Shown one piece after another: positions 2,443 to 21,076 of a stretch of DNA of 64,000 nucleotides (the stretch's first letter is position 1; each line of letters starts with the position of its first letter). The stretch spans positions 20,405 through 84,404 of the forward strand of contig JBEDDM010000001.1 of assembly GCA_041176225.1 (NCBI GenBank). Reading direction: 5' to 3'. The notes under the pieces were generated by a model. The model searched no databases. It had not been told where the DNA came from and worked only from the letters and a program-made list of their open reading frames with translations. The position numbers and the translations under genes were made by a program. This DNA comes from Chloroflexota bacterium. Lineage in GTDB: Bacteria > Chloroflexota > Limnocylindria > Limnocylindrales > Limnocylindraceae.

Positions 2443-4914
2443 TTACGGCTGAGTGCTTGGTAGTTCAATCACAGGAGCGGCGGTGGCGGCTGGGGTTGGA
2501 GTGCCGCCAGGGGCTACCGCTGCGCCGAGTACCGCACCTCTGATGCGCCCCTCTTCAGCCCAGATGAACGTCGGCGCTCCGCCATCTCGTGCAAGCGCGA
2601 TGTAGCCACCAACGATGTTGGAGACAACGCCATCGGGGGCCACAAGTTGATACTGCGCGAGCACGCTCCCGGAGGCCGCCTTGCTGTACGCGAGCATTCG
2701 CTGGTTGCGGACATCCCAGCCGTAAAGCACGCCTGTCCGGCTTGCGCCTGCGGAGAGGATGAGTCGAATTTCTGGGCTGCTGCGGATCACGCTGTCACCA
2801 GGGTCCGCTGGGACCCACTCGTCCACAGCGCCGCCAACATACCTTTGAACCAGGCCGTCTTGCGCAAGGTAGAGGTCGCCGTCAATTTCCATGGCGTCCA
2901 CACCGGTGAGCGACGTTGGGTTAATCAGATACCCGGTTGGTGGGGCCGGATAGCCCGTCCCATCGGGCGCGGGCGTGTATCGCAAGATTTGTCGCGCTGA
3001 GGGGTCAACTACATAGATTCTATACAGGCCTGTCCCCTCATCAGCAGCAAACCCGGAGATGATCGTTACGTCGCTCCCCCAAAGTTCGCCGTCCCGCACA
3101 CGGAGCTTCACGAGTGTTCCTTTCCCGCTTAGGTCGGCCGGCCGCCATCGCCAAAGGTTTGACGAGGCGTCAAAGATGAGGATGTCTGGTCCTGACGCGC
3201 TGATTGTCTGCGCGCGGCCCGTGGTGCTACCAAATAGTTCGTATCCGGGCTGGTAAATTACGGTTGCGCGAGGGTTTGGTTGCGCCGCCGGGTCGACTCG
3301 GTATACCGCTCCTGAGTAATCATCAAGGATATAGCTGTATCCGTCCGGCCCTTGGGTGATTGCCGTGATCTTGATGGGAACTGTTGCAGATGCGAAATCA
3401 AACACATCAAAAACTGAGGCGCGAGTGAGGAGGAAGAGTTTGTCGAGTGGCGCCTCCATCCTTTTGCGAAGTGCGTTGATCTCTGACACCGAGGCGCCAC
3501 CCGCTTCGGCGATCGCGAGTTTCTCTGTTGCACCAACCAGCAGTGTTCGCGCACGGTCTGGGTCACTTACAAGCAAATTGGTGACTGGGTTGAGTGCCTC
3601 ATCAACGGCTCGTGTTGCTTCAGCGAGGGACTCACGCGCATTTGCTGCAGCATCAAGCGTTGGATTCGTTTGATTCAGATAGACGCTTGCAGCACCGCCA
3701 ATTGCGGTGATGAGAATTGCTGTGAGCAACACGCTTGCGCTGCGCCGTCGGCTTTGAGCAATCGCCTGCTTCGGTGACACCTCACGTCTACGTTCAATAT
3801 CTAGGCTAGGTTCTGGCACTCGAGAGGCAGCCCACGGGAAGCGCCTCTCAGCTGCGCTAATGAGCCGTCTCGCCGCAGTGTGGAGCCGCGAAGGGGGTGT
3901 GGGCCCACGCTCAGCGCGGGAGCGCTCAATCTCTGGCTCAGCCCCGGGGCTGCGCTCCGCGCGCGCTCGTGCGGCTCGGCGGATCGCCTCGCGGTTTCTT
4001 GCATCACGGCTTGGTTGAGCCACGCGCGCCGCCGGACCGCGTGTTGACACCCCGCCACGCGCGCCGCTGCCTCGGCGCTCGGCGAGCACCTCTTGGGCGG
4101 CTCGATCAATTGGGGTGTACGGCTCCGTTGGATGTTCCGGGCGGCGGCGGTCCGCCTCTGGTTTTGGCGGCACAGCGGCGGCGATGAGCTCACTCCGTTC
4201 GTCGTTCCCCCCCTCCCATCTCGCGCGTGCCCGCGCTTTAGCCTGGGCGATGTTGTCTGTAGGGATTGCCAGGAGTGTGTCGTTTGCCTGCGAGGCGCTG
4301 CGCGGTGGTGGTAGCGCAGGTTCTTCGCTTGCAAGAAGGAGTGCGAGCTCTGCACCGTCGTTTGTCGGTCCTGGCCGACGCTTCAAAAGTTCTCGCCCCT
4401 CCTCTTCGCTGGCCGCAAGCGCGATTCGATCGCCGGGTGCAAGTGCAACACGCCCAGTGACAACCCCTTGCCGTTGCGCAGCTTTGGTTGACGCACCCGG
4501 CGCACCAGAGGGGAACAAGACAGTGACGTGTCGGCTTTCGCGGAGGAGTGAGGCGACGGCAGTGAGGTTTCCGCCTGATGCGGCCCACGCTTCACGACGA
4601 AGGAGGCCGACCATGCAGACCTCGCTCTGTTCGCCGAGCTGCTCGCGAAGCGCAACGATGATGGTGCGCGCACGCTCACCGGCGCCCCCTTCTCCTTGGT
4701 CAAAAAGATTCAGTGCGCGCTCGGCTGCCGCCTTGAGTTGAGATGTGTTCGATCCTGGGGCGGAGAGTAGAACCGCGCGCGCGCCGAGCGTGCGTGCGGT
4801 TGTGGGGCTCGTCGGCATGCGCAGTAGAAGTGCGCGGTCGCCCGCGGTGACCAGCGTCGCCGAGCCAACCAAGAGGGTTGGTTGCGCGTTAGTTGTTCGA
4901 AGGTTGTCGTTCAT
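2443..4914 (-). CDS. Large single-pass membrane protein of unknown function. It has an N-terminal cytoplasmic domain (~200 aa), an Arg/Pro/Glu-rich linker, one TM helix, and a C-terminal ~450-aa extracytoplasmic repeat (beta-propeller-like) domain.
   Basis: 823-aa ORF. TM segment SVLLTAILITAIGGAASVYL. The C-terminal region shows repeated ~45-aa units with G-x-(L/V)Y-x-x-D and W/Y motifs. The N-terminal segment weakly resembles the C-terminal half of PP2C/SpoIIE (…GRVALAPGDRIALAASEE…). Starts 17 nt downstream of the DUF721 gene. Confidence 0.5.
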   Translation of the reverse strand: MNDNLRTTNAQPTLLVGSATLVTAGDRALLLRMPTSPTTARTLGARAVLLSAPGSNTSQLKAAAERALNLFDQGEGGAGERARTIIVALREQLGEQSEVCMVGLLRREAWAASGGNLTAVASLLRESRHVTVLFPSGAPGASTKAAQRQGVVTGRVALAPGDRIALAASEEEGRELLKRRPGPTNDGAELALLLASEEPALPPPRSASQANDTLLAIPTDNIAQAKARARARWEGGNDERSELIAAAVPPKPEADRRRPEHPTEPYTPIDRAAQEVLAERRGSGARGGVSTRGPAARVAQPSRDARNREAIRRAARARAERSPGAEPEIERSRAERGPTPPSRLHTAARRLISAAERRFPWAASRVPEPSLDIERRREVSPKQAIAQSRRRSASVLLTAILITAIGGAASVYLNQTNPTLDAAANARESLAEATRAVDEALNPVTNLLVSDPDRARTLLVGATEKLAIAEAGGASVSEINALRKRMEAPLDKLFLLTRASVFDVFDFASATVPIKITAITQGPDGYSYILDDYSGAVYRVDPAAQPNPRATVIYQPGYELFGSTTGRAQTISASGPDILIFDASSNLWRWRPADLSGKGTLVKLRVRDGELWGSDVTIISGFAADEGTGLYRIYVVDPSARQILRYTPAPDGTGYPAPPTGYLINPTSLTGVDAMEIDGDLYLAQDGLVQRYVGGAVDEWVPADPGDSVIRSSPEIRLILSAGASRTGVLYGWDVRNQRMLAYSKAASGSVLAQYQLVAPDGVVSNIVGGYIALARDGGAPTFIWAEEGRIRGAVLGAAVAPGGTPTPAATAAPVIELPSTQP

Positions 4915-13030: not shown

Positions 13031-13406
13031 TGGTGGAGATGGAGGAGAGTCGAACTCCTCGTCCGAAAAGCCTGCCAAGAGACCACTACGAGCGTGTCCT
13101 GCGGTTTAGTCTGAGTTGAGGCGCTCCCACAGGCCGGATCGACCCTCAACCGAGTCACATGCCCCTAAATCGGGCTTGATCAGTGGCTATGTGTCACTCA
13201 CCACTGTTGCAGCTTCGCTTAATGACGCTTCCACGACCCGCGAAGCGGGGGCCGCTTCCACGCTCACCTTACTGCCTTAGGCAGCGAGGGCGAGAGCAGG
13301 CTGGCGATTGCCAGTTACTTCTTTTTGCTACCGGTTTAACGAGGCCTGATAGCAACCTCGACTCGCGTTCTCAAGGTGCGGTTTCCCGTCGAAACCACGC
13401 ATCCCC
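13031..13406 (-). ncRNA. ssrA: Transfer-messenger RNA (tmRNA, SsrA)
   Basis: Minus-strand 5' end GGGGATGCGTGGTTTCGACGGG (conserved UUCGACGGG). 3' end …GGACGAGGAGTTCGACTCTCCTCCATCTCCACCA (T-arm plus acceptor plus encoded CCA). Acceptor stem GGGGAUG/CAUCUCC carries the G3:U70 Ala identity pair. Internal tag reading frame …PALALAA followed by UAA. Immediately downstream of smpB. Confidence 0.85.
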
Positions 13407-14194: not shown

Positions 14195-15436
14195 CTACTT
14201 GAGGAGGTCCAGAGCCTTCTTCAGGGCCGGATCACCCTCACCAGGAGTTGGGGGTGTTGGCACCGGGTAGTCGGGGGCGAGCCCCACCTTGTTCACCCAG
14301 GTGCCGTTCGGTGTGAGCCACTTTGCGATCGTGAGCTTCAAGCCAGAGCCATCCTTGAGGTCGATAAACGTTTGCACCACACCCTTGCCAAAGGTTGTCT
14401 CACCGACGAGGACCGCGCGGCCGCGATCGCGCAACGCACCAGCGAGAATCTCACTCGCAGACGCACTCCCCTTATTGATCAGCACGACCACCTTGATTGT
14501 TGGATCTGTTGCGATGCCACCACCGTTCGCTGACGTTTCGGTTCGTTTCCCGTCGCTTGTCTCTTCCATGTAGACCACACCATCAGCGATGAATTCACTC
14601 GCAATCTGAAGTGCGGTGGAAAGGTAGCCGCCTGGGTTGTCTCGCAGGTCAAGGATGATTCGTGTGATACCAGCATCAACCACCTCTTGCAGCGCTTGAT
14701 CAAACTGATCACCTGCAACCTCACTGAACTCCGCAAGGCGCAGGTAGCCAACAGGAGAACTATCCGATGTCTCGAGCGTCTCCGGCTCAACAGCAGGGAC
14801 GGTGATCACGTCACGGATGATTGTCAGATTTAGCGGGGCCGCATCACCACGGAGGATCGTGATTACCACGCTTGTCCCCTTCGCACCACGAACACGAAGC
14901 ACCGCTTCGTCCAGCGTCTCGCCATCTACAGTGAGACCGTCAACGAGCGTGATGCGGTCGCCGCTCTGCACACCCGCAGCCTTTGCGGGCGAGCCGTCAA
15001 TTGGTGAGACCACAAGGAGATAGCAGTCTGGACCAAGCGTGGTGCAGGCTTCACCTGCGGGACCGCGACTCTCGATTACTGCGCCAATCCCCTCAAAGCT
15101 TCCAGAGAGACCCTCAACGAGCGCATCCATCTCTTCGCCAGTGAGGTATTGCGAGTACGGATCATTAAGTGACTCAACGAGCCCCTTGATGGCGCCGTCA
15201 ATAAGGGCCTCTTCGGTTTTGTCGCCAACGTGTCGTGTCTCAACAAGGTCAAGCACCTCGTTGAATCGGGAGAGATCAATCGCCCCAGATGCGCCAGTGA
15301 CGCCGGCTGCGCTACTGCCGCTGTTGTAGCCAAGGTTGTATGCGCCGACAGCGAGTAGCAGGGCGAGAAGGAGTGCCCCTGCGCGCGTCACGAGCGGAGG
15401 ACGTCCGTTACCGCTCAGACCAAAACGTTGTTGCAC
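14195..15436 (-). CDS. ctpA: Carboxyl-terminal processing protease (S41 family, PDZ-containing)
   Basis: 413 aa; signal/TM N-terminus, PDZ region, S41 catalytic motifs GSASASE and TFGKG. Confidence 0.9.
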   Translation of the reverse strand: MQQRFGLSGNGRPPLVTRAGALLLALLLAVGAYNLGYNSGSSAAGVTGASGAIDLSRFNEVLDLVETRHVGDKTEEALIDGAIKGLVESLNDPYSQYLTGEEMDALVEGLSGSFEGIGAVIESRGPAGEACTTLGPDCYLLVVSPIDGSPAKAAGVQSGDRITLVDGLTVDGETLDEAVLRVRGAKGTSVVITILRGDAAPLNLTIIRDVITVPAVEPETLETSDSSPVGYLRLAEFSEVAGDQFDQALQEVVDAGITRIILDLRDNPGGYLSTALQIASEFIADGVVYMEETSDGKRTETSANGGGIATDPTIKVVVLINKGSASASEILAGALRDRGRAVLVGETTFGKGVVQTFIDLKDGSGLKLTIAKWLTPNGTWVNKVGLAPDYPVPTPPTPGEGDPALKKALDLLK

Positions 15437-15472
15437 ACGCCCTCCTTGCCGCTATTGGTTGAATCAACGCTG

Positions 15473-16384
15473 CTATGAGCTCAGTCGACCACGAAGTGAG
15501 AGTAGTGCACCGAGTGCGCCGAGCCCAAACCCAGCAAGCAACACCGTGACCGCAACCTCTCCGAGCAAGATTCCAGACGTCTCGATTGGTAGGACACGGA
15601 AGAGGTTCAGCATGACGGTGCTGATCCCAGCACCAAGGATTCCGAAGATAAAGAGGGTGATCAGTGCGCCCGCGCCACCAATGATCAACCCCTCAATGAT
15701 GAACGGGAGTCGCACCCAGGTGGACGTTGCGCCAACAAGGCGCATGATCGCAATCTCATCACTTCGCGCAAGGATGGCGAGTCGAATCGCGTTGACGACC
15801 ACGGCGAGGACGGCAAACGAGAATCCAATCAGGACAATGAGGCCGGCGATACGAAGCGCCGAAGTGATGCTGGCAAGACTTTCCGCAACGGCACGACCAT
15901 CAACGATGCGCGAGAAGAGCGCGGCAGAGGGGAGGCGACTGAGTGCGTCTGCAACGCTCGCCGTCTCACTTGGGCTGTCCAGCGCGATCTCAAAGCTTGC
16001 GGGGAGCGGGTTCTGCTCAAGCTCACCAGTGAGGTCTGGCTCACCGCGCTCCTTCAGCCGCTCACGGAATGCAGCGAGCGCTTCATCAGCGGTGATGTAC
16101 GTGGCCTCCTTCACTCCGTCGATCTTGAGGATCTCGTTGCGCAGTGAGTTCGCACGCTCTTCGGAGGCGCCGACCTTCAGGTAGGCGACCACCTCAACCT
16201 TGGAGTCCGCATAGCTGAGCGCAGCGTCAAGTCCGGCGCGAATCACAAGGACTGAGGCGAGGACGAGCAGCATCAACGTCATGGTCATGGTGGCGGCAAC
16301 CGTGGCGAGCCTGTTGCGTGAGAGACCATTCACCGCAGCGGAGACGCTCAGGCGAATCAGCCGACCGTTCTGCGCCCTACTCAC
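15473..16384 (-). CDS. ftsX: Cell-division ABC transporter permease-like protein FtsX
   Basis: 303 aa; 4-TM FtsX topology with a large extracytoplasmic loop; follows ftsE. Confidence 0.9.
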   Translation of the reverse strand: MSRAQNGRLIRLSVSAAVNGLSRNRLATVAATMTMTLMLLVLASVLVIRAGLDAALSYADSKVEVVAYLKVGASEERANSLRNEILKIDGVKEATYITADEALAAFRERLKERGEPDLTGELEQNPLPASFEIALDSPSETASVADALSRLPSAALFSRIVDGRAVAESLASITSALRIAGLIVLIGFSFAVLAVVVNAIRLAILARSDEIAIMRLVGATSTWVRLPFIIEGLIIGGAGALITLFIFGILGAGISTVMLNLFRVLPIETSGILLGEVAVTVLLAGFGLGALGALLSLRGRLSS

Positions 16385-16411
16385 GAACGACCCCCTTCAC
16401 CGTTCACCCGC

Positions 16412-17158
16412 TCACCCTGCACGATGGTATGTCCCACGCGCTTCGTCGCGGATAAGGCGTCCACCCTCAAGTCCGATCACACGTTTTCGCAGTGTGGTGA
16501 CTACGTCTGAATCGTGTGTTGCGACAAGGACGGTGACGCCAAGCTGATTGATCTGCCCGAGCAGCTCCATGATCTCCCAGCTGATGAGTGGATCAAGGTT
16601 CCCCGTTGGCTCATCGGCAATGAGCAGCTCAGGGTTGCCAACGATGGCGCGCGCGATCGCAGCGCGCTGCTGCTCGCCACCCGAGAGCGCGTCAGGGTAT
16701 CGCTCCGCGAGCGCAGTGAGACCAACAATGCGAAGGGCGCGCTCAACAGCGGCGTCAACCTCTTCGCGTGGCGCGCCGGTGACCTCCAGCGCAAAGGCGG
16801 TGTTCTCGCGAACGGTGCGTCTCTGCAGGAGTCGGAAGTCTTGGAAGACCACGCCAACACGTCGGCGCAAGTAGGGGACCTCGCTCGGTTGAAGGGTGTG
16901 TACCGCGTGCCCCGCAACGTGCACCTCACCAGAGAGAGGAATCACGTCGCGCACGAGGAGGCCGATCAGCGACGACTTCCCCGCGCCAGAAGGCCCAACA
17001 AGGAAGGCGAACTCACCAGGGTTGATGGTGAGGCTGACGCCCGCGAGTGCTGTGTGTCCGCTTGGGTATTGAACGCGGACATCTCGCAGCGTAACGACCG
17101 GCTCAACTGCCAGAAGCTCTGCAGCACCATCAGTGTTCATGGGCTCTAGGTTACTCAT
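16412..17158 (-). CDS. ftsE: Cell-division ATP-binding protein FtsE
   Basis: ABC ATPase motifs (GPSGAGKSS, LSGGEQQR, LLIADEPTGNLD). The ORF-track start at 17230 overlaps prfB; an internal Met at 17158 is the more likely start. Confidence 0.9.
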   Translation of the reverse strand: MSNLEPMNTDGAAELLAVEPVVTLRDVRVQYPSGHTALAGVSLTINPGEFAFLVGPSGAGKSSLIGLLVRDVIPLSGEVHVAGHAVHTLQPSEVPYLRRRVGVVFQDFRLLQRRTVRENTAFALEVTGAPREEVDAAVERALRIVGLTALAERYPDALSGGEQQRAAIARAIVGNPELLIADEPTGNLDPLISWEIMELLGQINQLGVTVLVATHDSDVVTTLRKRVIGLEGGRLIRDEARGTYHRAG

Positions 17159-18282
17159 CGTCTGGCCCCGCCGCTGCCACAGGTGCGCCGATCGCCAACC
17201 GTTCAAGTTCCGCAAGGATGAAGGGGTCAAAGTCGCCGTCCATCACACCAGTGGTATCTGCGGTCTGATGTCCACTGCGGTGATCTTTCACCATCTGATA
17301 CGGGTGGAAGACGTAGCTGCGAATCTGGCTCCCCCAGCCGGCGACCACAGTCTCGCCGCGCACGCGTGCCAGCTCATCTTCGCGCGCGCGAATCTTCAGT
17401 TCGATCAACTTACCCCGCAGCATCTTCTCCGCGGTCTCGCGATTCTGCATCTGCGAGCGCTGATTCTGGCTTGACACGGCGATGTTGGTGGGAAGGTGCG
17501 TGAGACGAACCGCCGACTCGGTCTTGTTGACGTGTTGGCCACCCGCGCCACTGGAGCGGAAGGTATCAACGCGAATCTCGTCCCAATTCAACACCACGTC
17601 TTGATCATCCTCAACTTCTGGGATCACTTCGAACATGGCGAAGGTGGTCTGTCGTCGTTTCTGTCCATCAAACGGAGAGATGCGCACCATCCGGTGCACG
17701 CCACGTTCCGCGCGCAACCAGCCGAACACATTGCGACCACGAATCTCAAGGGCAACGCTTCGGTAGCCGGCGCCTTCGCCTTCGGTGAAGTCAACAATCT
17801 CGTGCGCGAATCCGTGACGCTCCGCCCACCGCATGTACGCGCGTAGGAGCATGGCGGTCCAGTCGCACGCTTCGGTTCCGCCTGCGCCGGCTTGGATCGT
17901 CACGACAGCATCTGCATCTGCGTATTCGCCCGCGAAGAGGAGGGAGGTGCGTGCCTGTTGGAAGTCCTGTTCTACCCGAGCACTCTTCTCTGAGACTTCG
18001 GCGAGGAGCGCCTCATCACCTTCGGAGGTTGCAAGCTCGAAGAGCTCGCCGAGGTCGCGCGCGGCGGTGGTTAGCTGCTGCCACCGCGTGATCTCTTCGC
18101 GCAGGCCCTCCGCTTCACGGGCGAGTCGACGGGCGCTGCGTTGGTCGTCCCAGAAGCCTGGAGCGAGCATCTGCGTCTCAATTGCTGCGAGACGCGCCCC
18201 CTTTACGGCTGGGTCAAAGACGCCCCGACGTTGCCTCGATACGTCCGAGCAGGTCGCGCAGGCCGGCAGCGTCGACGCTCAC
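17151..18282 (-). CDS. prfB: Peptide chain release factor 2, made by a programmed +1 frameshift. The short 0-frame leader (GTG at 18282) joins the 339-aa track ORF at a CUU UGA C site.
   Basis: The track ORF has the SPFD…GGQHVNKTESAVRLTHLPT core including the GGQ motif. Upstream, the minus strand reads GTG AGC GTC … TCG GGG CGT CTT TGA C: leader MSVDAAGLRDLLGRIEATSGRL, then +1 frame DPAVKGARLAAIETQMLAPGFWDD… The SD-like GGGG, 3-nt spacer and CUU-UGA-C match the canonical RF2 autoregulatory site. Confidence 0.9.
18213..18219 (-). other. prfB: Programmed +1 ribosomal frameshift site of prfB (CUU UGA C with an upstream SD-like GGGG)
   Basis: Minus-strand CTTTGAC at 18213-18219 (plus strand gtcaaag), with GGGGCG immediately 5'. 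Confidence 0.85.
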
Positions 18283-18355
18283 CGGGGGCGCTCACTCGGT
18301 CGCACGAAGGCGACGACGGGGTTTTGCTGCTTCACGTTCGCGATCGTAGCAGGGG

Positions 18356-21076
18356 CTATGCCCCGTGGCACTTCTTGAACTTCTTCCCCGAGCCACACGG
18401 ACAGGCGTCGTTTCGACCCGCCTTCATTGAGGGTGTTGTCGTAGCGGATGCAGACGGAGTGGCAACCGCCGCCTCAGAGCTCCCACCAACGGTCTTCACG
18501 GCTACGGGCGTAGGTGCGCGCTGCGCTTGCACGAGGCTGACGCGCAAGACGGCACGGCCAATGCTGACGCGAATGAGCGACTGAAACTCTTCGTACAGTT
18601 TGAATGCTTCAATCTTGAAGGCGTTGAGCGGGTCAACCTGCGCATGTCCACGCAGCCCGATACCGCGGCGAAGATCATCAACCTCAGTAAGGTGCTCCAC
18701 CCAGAGCTGATCAATGCTGCGCAGGATGACGGCGCGCTCTACGCGCGGCCAGAGCTCTTCACCAACCTCAACCGCCTTCTTCTCAAGTGCAGCATCCGCT
18801 GCGGCGTCCACCGCCTCATACAAGAGTGAGTCTTCAACAAGGGTGTCGAGCGATGCAGGCGGCTCAATGCCGAGGCGCTTCAGTTCTGTGGCGAGCGCGC
18901 TGCGGTTCCACTCACCAGTGAGCCCCGGTGGACAGTGGGTGACGGCGAGTGCGCGTACTTCACCGTGCAGCGCATCTTGGATGGTGAGGGTGAGGTTTTC
19001 GCCGCGGAGCACTCGATCGCGTTCGCCATAGACCGTGGCACGCTGCATGTTGATAACGTCGTCAAACTCTACGACGCGCTTTCGGATATCAAAGTTGTAC
19101 CCCTCAACGCGCGTCTGCGCCCCTTCAATGGTGCGACTCACCATTGTGGATTCAAGCGCCTGACTCTCGTCAAATCCGAGTCGATCCATCAGGCCGACGA
19201 CACGTTCACCGGCGAAGCGCTTCATTAGATCGTCTTCAAGGGAGAGGTAGAAGCGCGAGGAGCCAGGGTCACCCTGTCGTCCCGCTCGCCCTCGCAACTG
19301 GTTGTCAATGCGGCGTGATTCGTGCCGCTCGGTGCCGACAATGCGCAAGCCACCTGCGGCAAGCACAACCTCGCGCTCGGATGCGCAAGTGCGCTCAGCG
19401 TCGGCGAGTGCTGCGGCGTAGGTCTCTGGATCTACTTCGGCGGGGTTCAAGCCTTTGATGCGGAGGGCTTCAGAGGCGAGACCAGCTGGGTCTCCACCAA
19501 GCTTGATGTCTGTTCCGCGACCGGCCATGTTGGTGGCGATCGTGACGGTTCCTGGTCGCCCCGCCTGCGCAACCACAGGCGCTTCGCGTTCATGCTGCTT
19601 TGCGTTCAGGACGTTGTGCGCGACACCCTCACGTTTCAACATTGCGGCGAGGTGCTCCGAGCGTTCAACAGATGTGGTGCCAACGAGCACCGGCTGGCCA
19701 GCCGCGCTCCGCTCCTTGATGTGCGCAACGATCGCCGCATCTTTCGCGCGGACGGTGCGGTAGACAAGATCAGGTTCATCCACGCGGATCATTGGGCGAT
19801 GTGTTGGAATAGATGTCACGTCAAGGCTGTAGATCTTGCTGAACTCTTCCGCCTCCGTCATGGCGGTACCCGTCATTCCGGCGAGCTTCTTGTAGAGGCG
19901 GAAGTAATTCTGGAAGGTGATCGTGGCCATCGTGACCGATTCACGCTGGACGCGGAGCCCCTCTTTCGCCTCAACCGCTTGATGAAGTCCTTCGGACCAG
20001 CGGCGGCCTGGCATCTTGCGTCCTGTGAATTCGTCCACGATGACAATCTCACCGTCTTCAATGATGTAATCACGATCACGCTTAAAGAGTGCGTGTGCGC
20101 GAAGTGCCGACTCAAAGTGTCGGGCCATCAGCGGGTCGCCGCTGTAGAGGTTCTCTACACCGAGCGCCTTCTCAATCTTCGAGACACCCTCTTCCGTTGG
20201 TGAAACCGCCTTATCTTTCGCATCAACAAAATAGTCACCACCCTCAAGCGCGCCAGCCGGACGCTCCTTGAGGCGAGGGACAAGTTTCGCGAAGACTTGG
20301 TAGAGGTCCTGCGATTCGGCGGCCTGGCCACTGATGATGAGTGGCGTCCTGGCCTCGTCAATGAGGATGTTGTCCACCTCGTCCACGATCGCGAAGGCGT
20401 GACCACGCTGCGCCCGAGCTTCGAGCTCGGTGACCATGTTGTCTCGCAGGTAGTCGAAGCCGAACTCGTTGTTCGTGCCGTAGGTGACGTCGGCGGCGTA
20501 CGCCTCCCTCCGCGTAACGGGGCGCAGGCGCGCCGTGCGCTCTTCGCCGCTGCTGAACTCAGCGTCGTAGAGATACGAGGCGTCGTGCGTGATGACGCCG
20601 AGCGAGATGCCGAGAAAGGAGAAGAGTGGGCCCATCCACTGCGCGTCGCGTCGCGCCAGGTAGTCGTTGACGGTGATGACGTGTACGCCGTCGCCTGTGA
20701 GGGCGTTCGCGGCAGCGGCGAGCGGAGCGACGAGCGTCTTCCCTTCGCCAGTGCGCATCTCTGGAATCTTTCCTTGATGAAGGACGATCGCGCCAAGGAT
20801 CTGCACGTCGTACGGGCGTAGACCGATCGTGCGCTTTGCCGCCTCGCGAGCGGCGGCCAGGATCTCTGGGAGCACCTCTTCAAGTCGCTGCTTCTGATCG
20901 TCGCCGCTTCGCGCTCGCAGGTCTGCCGCGATCGCCTCCATCCGCCCGCGAATCTCTTCGGCGCTTGTTGACTCCATCTCGTCGGCACGCGCGTTGACGG
21001 CGTCAAGGATTGGCGCGAGCCGTTTGAGCTCGCGGTCGTTGGAGTCAACAAGACGTGAGAGGAAGCCGAACACCAC
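18356..21076 (-). CDS. secA: Preprotein translocase ATPase SecA
   Basis: 906 aa; DEAD-like motor motifs and a C-terminal zinc finger CPCGSGKKFKKCHG. Confidence 0.97.
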   Translation of the reverse strand: MVFGFLSRLVDSNDRELKRLAPILDAVNARADEMESTSAEEIRGRMEAIAADLRARSGDDQKQRLEEVLPEILAAAREAAKRTIGLRPYDVQILGAIVLHQGKIPEMRTGEGKTLVAPLAAAANALTGDGVHVITVNDYLARRDAQWMGPLFSFLGISLGVITHDASYLYDAEFSSGEERTARLRPVTRREAYAADVTYGTNNEFGFDYLRDNMVTELEARAQRGHAFAIVDEVDNILIDEARTPLIISGQAAESQDLYQVFAKLVPRLKERPAGALEGGDYFVDAKDKAVSPTEEGVSKIEKALGVENLYSGDPLMARHFESALRAHALFKRDRDYIIEDGEIVIVDEFTGRKMPGRRWSEGLHQAVEAKEGLRVQRESVTMATITFQNYFRLYKKLAGMTGTAMTEAEEFSKIYSLDVTSIPTHRPMIRVDEPDLVYRTVRAKDAAIVAHIKERSAAGQPVLVGTTSVERSEHLAAMLKREGVAHNVLNAKQHEREAPVVAQAGRPGTVTIATNMAGRGTDIKLGGDPAGLASEALRIKGLNPAEVDPETYAAALADAERTCASEREVVLAAGGLRIVGTERHESRRIDNQLRGRAGRQGDPGSSRFYLSLEDDLMKRFAGERVVGLMDRLGFDESQALESTMVSRTIEGAQTRVEGYNFDIRKRVVEFDDVINMQRATVYGERDRVLRGENLTLTIQDALHGEVRALAVTHCPPGLTGEWNRSALATELKRLGIEPPASLDTLVEDSLLYEAVDAAADAALEKKAVEVGEELWPRVERAVILRSIDQLWVEHLTEVDDLRRGIGLRGHAQVDPLNAFKIEAFKLYEEFQSLIRVSIGRAVLRVSLVQAQRAPTPVAVKTVGGSSEAAVATPSASATTTPSMKAGRNDACPCGSGKKFKKCHGA

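Follow-up and report, generated by a model that had tools for sequence, protein, structure and literature searches.

The prfB gene on the minus strand of this DNA, a 64,000-nucleotide stretch (64 kb; hereafter the window) from the freshwater lineage Candidatus Limnocylindrus (Chloroflexota), almost certainly carries the canonical site of the programmed +1 ribosomal frameshift by which bacterial prfB regulates itself. The consensus site is AGGGGG-NNN-CTT-TGA-C, with a Shine-Dalgarno (SD)-like element three nucleotides 5' of CTT; the slippery sequence CTTT consists of this codon and the first base of TGA, and the C that follows makes for poor termination (PMC12421855). The motif occurs in prfB of 64% of 12,753 RefSeq genomes and was probably already present in the last bacterial common ancestor (PMC12421855). 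The 3' end of the leader described here reads ...TCG GGG CGT CTT TGA C on the minus strand, and an earlier note that had called the site canonical (CUU UGA C with an upstream SD-like GGGG) is borne out by GGGG-CGT-CTT-TGA-C at the coordinates below. The SD-like element UCGGGG matches AGGGGG at four of six positions, all four in the GGGG, and keeps the 3-nt spacing of the consensus. The elements of the gene are as follows.

17151..18282, minus strand: complete recoded prfB, encoding RF2 of 376 aa by way of a +1 shift that skips one nucleotide (22 frame-0 codons, then 354 in the +1 frame)
18280..18282, minus strand: leader start GTG, the sole canonical start in the 0 frame; ATG in relative L005
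18214..18282, minus strand: 0-frame leader ORF, 22 codons and TGA, VSVDAAGLRDLLGRIEATSGRL*, the product expected if RF2 terminates at the site
18223..18226, minus strand: SD-like G-run GGGG (context UCGGGG), 3 nt 5' of CTT, made of the third base of Ser TCG and of Gly GGG
18220..18222, minus strand: spacer (E-site) codon CGT; CGC, CGG or CGT among relatives
18217..18219, minus strand: slippery P-site codon CTT (Leu22), invariant across all relatives
18214..18216, minus strand: in-frame TGA, codon 23, the RF2-specific stop codon that would sense the RF2 level
18213..18213, minus strand: C after the stop, giving the weak termination context UGAC (PMC12421855); also the third base of GAC 18215–18213, the first +1-frame codon
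17151..18215, minus strand: +1-frame RF2 body, 354 codons and TAA (17153–17151), beginning DPAVKG... and containing SPF (RISPFD) and GGQ (SGAGGQHV)
17151..18170, minus strand: mechanically listed 339-aa ORF with an ATG start, an N-terminally truncated RF2
18279..18281, minus strand: TGA closing the +1 frame upstream of the site, overlapping the leader start (gGTGAgc)

The 22-codon 0-frame leader that the earlier note had translated by hand, from GTG to CGU CUU UGA, was recovered at 18214..18282 (minus strand). Its further claim that the +1 frame continues into the listed ORF also holds, as this frame is open for 354 codons from GAC 18215 and contains the entire 339-aa ORF. We sought ATG, GTG and TTG codons in the +1 frame upstream of ATG 18170, back to the TGA at 18281–18279, and found none. 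Because the +1 frame is closed at this TGA and has no start before ATG 18170, it cannot yield an unshifted full-length RF2, in agreement with the note, which had reported no alternative in-frame start for such a protein. No convincing SD sequence was found upstream of the leader GTG.

From its protein matches, the host gene is identified as one encoding RF2. The fused protein scores 458.5 bits on the NCBIfam prfB model TIGR00020 (cut-off 370) and covers model positions 4–352 of 353, compared with 444.3 bits and positions 33–352 for the 339-aa ORF alone, which is still above the prfB cut-off. The unshifted ORF thus lacks model positions 4–32, and joining leader, Asp and ORF regains these roughly 30 N-terminal positions, confirming that the listed ORF is truncated at its N-terminus. 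An RF1 (prfA) identity was considered and rejected: scores on TIGR00019 (234.9 bits, cut-off 423.25) and NF001859 (250.5 bits, cut-off 400) both fall below threshold, and the recognition-motif position reads SPF, not PxT.

The best matches among solved structures in the PDB are B. subtilis RF2 chains (9fy1 and 6szs, E about 1e-104). The earlier note had proposed aligning the fused protein with RF2 sequences, and this alignment gives a match to B. subtilis RF2 from residue 6 that crosses the junction (query 6–359; ...atsgrldpavkgarla... in the query against ...dfrgsldleskearia...). It extends equally to proteins from metagenome-assembled genomes (MAGs): full-length NCBI RF2 entries of Limnocylindrales and other Chloroflexota MAGs (374–379 aa) align at 57–60% identity and 98–99% query coverage, along the whole leader, with a junction that reads ...ATSGRLDL....

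We examined how far the motif exceeds chance expectation. The bare heptamer CTTTGAC occurs 14 times on both strands of the window, against 7.2 expected, and one of 100 shuffles reached 14; this mild excess probably reflects codon or dipeptide composition. With 14 copies the bare heptamer is worthless as evidence by itself, and what counts is the longer motif together with its place in the gene. A second CTTTGAC within prfB (17226–17232, minus strand) is read in frame as C-TTT-GAC (GDFDP) and is irrelevant. The longer sequence GGGGNNNCTTTGAC has one copy in 64 kb against 0.05 expected, located where an alignment of RF2 genes places the site. The status of the site as more than a chance match rests mainly on its conservation across relatives.

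These relatives came from a scan of species-representative genomes, which yielded MAGs of Candidatus Limnocylindrus and of other Limnocylindria and Chloroflexota; by protein identity, the 15 relative loci comprise L001–L006 (82–96%) and L007–L015 (57–61%). TCGGGGCGN-CTT-TGA-CC stands at the homologous position in all 15 Limnocylindria loci, with leaders of 20–22 codons. We compared codons across 16 sequences, the window and these 15 loci. Among 152 columns with an invariant amino acid, 96 have at least four synonymous codons, and only three of the 96 are also invariant in codon: Ser TCG (−3) and Gly GGG (−2), which supply the G-run, and Leu CTT (0), the slippery codon itself. Between them, the spacer codon for Arg is free among the 16 sequences; the Asp that follows the stop is encoded by GAC throughout, so that the C following UGA is preserved. 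On this comparative evidence, the G-run, CUU, UGA and C show nucleotide-level selection. Most relatives begin the leader with GTG, and L005 begins it with ATG (near position 3001), an exchange as would be expected of a real start codon; the overlapping +1-frame TGA is retained there. A search of Rfam at the frameshift site, using gathering thresholds, gave no match to a curated RNA family.

The shorter SD-like element, UCGGGG, is the only departure of the site from the textbook form. We calculated its predicted duplex with a generic anti-SD, ACCUCCUUA, on 9-nt cores, as long flanks gave spurious pairings; UCGGGG reached −5.4 kcal/mol against −10.2 kcal/mol for AGGGGGUAU. The 64-kb window contains no rRNA or tRNA gene detectable with Rfam, which matched only a tmRNA, or with ARAGORN, which reported nothing, and so holds no 16S 3' end or tRNA-Leu of its own. 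As a rough proxy for anti-SD use, 21 of 48 long ORFs have an SD-like core upstream, compared with a background of 17%.

A rough count of stop codons over 48 non-overlapping, mechanically chosen ORFs of at least 150 aa gave 21 TAG, 15 TGA and 12 TAA. TGA is usually favoured in high-GC genomes, and the G+C content of the window is 61.5%; at this G+C, TAG rather than TGA seems to be the commonest stop of the Limnocylindria lineage. Across bacteria, genomes that have lost the motif tend towards high GC and high TGA usage, and those that retain it towards lower TGA usage (PMC12421855). The moderate TGA share seen here despite high GC fits this published pattern for motif-retaining lineages (PMC12421855).

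In the mechanism we propose, translation would begin at GTG 18282 and read 22 codons, bringing peptidyl-tRNA-Leu onto CUU in the P site, with UGA in the A site and behind it a C that makes for poor termination. As described in the literature for E. coli and B. subtilis, plentiful RF2 would terminate at UGA and release a 22-residue peptide; scarce RF2 would leave the ribosome paused, allowing tRNA-Leu to slip from CUU to UUU. The GGGG three nucleotides before CUU may pair with the anti-SD tail of 16S rRNA and so aid slippage, after which decoding would resume at GAC in the +1 frame and yield the full RF2 of 376 residues. The slippage itself, the involvement of the anti-SD and feedback through the amount of RF2 are points that we infer from studies of E. 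coli and B. subtilis (cited in PMC12421855).

Two other readings do away with a programmed shift altogether. If there were no recoding, RF2 would be the 339-residue protein started at ATG 18170, and the 22-codon frame would be untranslated or an unrelated small ORF. That the 339-aa ORF passes the prfB cut-off by itself (444.3 bits) and is the form stored in many database entries speaks for this view, but such entries are what gene callers without a recoding rule produce. The leader, moreover, is conserved as protein and aligns with helix 1 of RF2 from B. subtilis and other bacteria; the 37 residues before Met38, spread over two frames, match RF2 model positions 4–32; Met38 is not kept as a start, the position being occupied by Thr or Val in L007–L015; and the codons that never vary are precisely those making up GGGG and CTT. 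We therefore regard production of RF2 from ATG 18170 as extremely unlikely. A sequencing or assembly indel, or a decaying pseudogene, has next to no chance of explaining the frame break. A single-base break near a run of T could in principle be an error, but it recurs at the same nucleotide in 15 independently assembled MAGs from different studies and carries the exact canonical motif, and both parts of the gene are under purifying selection, with a body intact for 354 codons.

A further reading accepts the shift but has it work unlike the E. coli model, for example largely independently of the anti-SD, or constitutively rather than in response to RF2, with an SD-like element of just four Gs. 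The predicted pairing is indeed weaker than for the consensus, and sites in Thermoleophilia that keep CTT TGA C and lack a G-rich element indicate that the stimulator may be dispensable in some lineages; Bacteroidia, according to the abstract of PMC10798248, also keep the site though their ribosomes fail to recognize SD sequences. Set against this, the G of TCG and the whole of GGG are synonymously frozen in 16 of 16 sequences while the spacer is free, which argues for a function of the G-run at the RNA level; the consensus spacing is kept exactly, and UGA, the RF2-specific stop, is invariant. A departure from the E. coli mode of action is thus very improbable in our assessment, and we retain the canonical, RF2-sensitive frameshift as the preferred reading.

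The surrounding genes, in the order secA – prfB – ftsE – ftsX – S41 C-terminal processing peptidase, occupy 14195–21076 of the window (minus strand). Family matches in this neighbourhood are above or near cut-offs, with FtsX reaching the cut-off of none of the three lineage-specific FtsX models. The secA gene lies at 18356–21076 (minus strand), leaving a gap of 73 nt before prfB, and a promoter and terminator scan of 17000–18700, which includes this gap, returned nothing. At its other end, prfB shares its last 8 nt with a candidate ftsE start (17151–17158, minus strand; ATGAGTAA, with ATG at 17158–17156 and the prfB TAA at 17153–17151), which suggests that translation of prfB and ftsE may be coupled. 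The mechanically listed ftsE ORF begins further upstream, at TTG 17230, within prfB. Downstream of prfB, a tmRNA gene at 13031–13406 (minus strand) was matched by Rfam (RF00023, 119 bits, full-length model match); ARAGORN, whose search likewise covers tmRNA, made no gene call anywhere in the window.

Outside the window, CTT TGA C was also observed at the homologous place of prfB in many loci labelled as Thermoleophilia (Actinomycetota), from Solirubrobacterales, Thermoleophilaceae, Conexibacter sp. and Gaiellales.

Near locus position 3003 in most: the site in Thermoleophilia MAG loci L021, L026, L028, L030, L034–L039, L044–L046, L050, L055, L057–L061, L066, L069, L071–L073, L075–L077 and L079
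L081 301–450: a further Thermoleophilia locus with the site

The 0-frame leaders of these loci end in ...LLADYL* or ...WVRDYL*, and the body goes on as DP... in the +1 frame. The sequence before CTT is GCGGACTAY or CGTGATTAC, without a G-rich SD-like element, as in GCGGACTAT CTT TGA C. Within a few codons upstream of the site, the +1 frame of the Thermoleophilaceae and Conexibacter-type loci is closed, and the shift is therefore required there. Several Gaiellales-type loci have a +1 frame that is open further upstream and contains start codons, making an unshifted ORF formally possible; most of the loci listed have no unshifted full-length ORF. NCBI holds fused proteins for such Thermoleophilia MAGs (P0122, P0125 and P0143; ...LLADYLDPA...), and the cultured Conexibacter woesei has a contiguous GAC TAC GTC GAT CCG (ADYVDP) with no frameshift.

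A 2025 survey reported the motif to be entirely absent from Actinomycetota (n = 2,658 RefSeq representative genomes; PMC12421855). Judged from the loci above, this absence appears not to extend to uncultured Thermoleophilia, and a literature search combining prfB, frameshift and Thermoleophilia found nothing. One could speculate that four Gs serve the Limnocylindria site as a minimal stimulator and that it forms, with the SD-less Thermoleophilia sites, a series of high-GC lineages that keep RF2 feedback and progressively dispense with the anti-SD interaction. We consider such a series unlikely; if it were real, some ribosomes would need no more than CUU-UGA-C, and the published scenario in which the motif was "lost in the Actinomycetota ancestor" would need revising.

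The practical value of the site lies in annotation. The correct prfB product is a 376-aa protein with slippage at 18216/18215, neither the 339-aa ORF nor a pseudogene. The 15 closest database clusters (82–99% identity; ENA, JGI and Logan) are stored as N-terminally truncated proteins of 290–340 aa, most of them 339 aa long and starting with MLAPGFW, in keeping with the earlier note's remark that pipelines often miss such sites. NCBI entries for Limnocylindria and other Chloroflexota MAGs (e.g. P0023, P0018 and P0020) are full length (374–376 aa), with the slippage built in. These are orthologous variants of the present gene at 57–60% identity, sharing the junction ATSGRL-D and differing in a leader of 20 codons, compared with 22 here; Limnocylindrales loci L007–L015, in the same identity range (about 60%), have the DNA motif TCGGGGCGN CTT TGA CC. 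The Thermoleophilia MAG genes have CTT TGA C at the homologous position, as here, and lack the G-rich element, whereas the site in the window keeps its G-run.

Compared with prfB of E. coli and B. subtilis, the shift lies in the same gene and at the same place in the protein (...GYL/DY... in E. coli, ...GSL/DL... in B. subtilis and ...GRL/DP... here), and CUU, UGA, the 3' C and a G-rich element at 3-nt spacing are shared (PMC12421855). The leader, of 22 codons, is similar in length to that of E. coli, where codon 26 is the stop. Differences from the two model genes lie in the SD-like element, which is UCGGGG rather than AGGGGG, in the GTG with which the leader begins, and in the spacer (E-site) codon, which is CGU here, UAU in E. 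coli and UCU in Bacillaceae loci. The site is thus the standard, long-known RF2 recoding site in its expected gene, already known and ordinary; it raises no new question and adds one more Chloroflexota lineage to the bacterial majority that keeps RF2 autoregulation.
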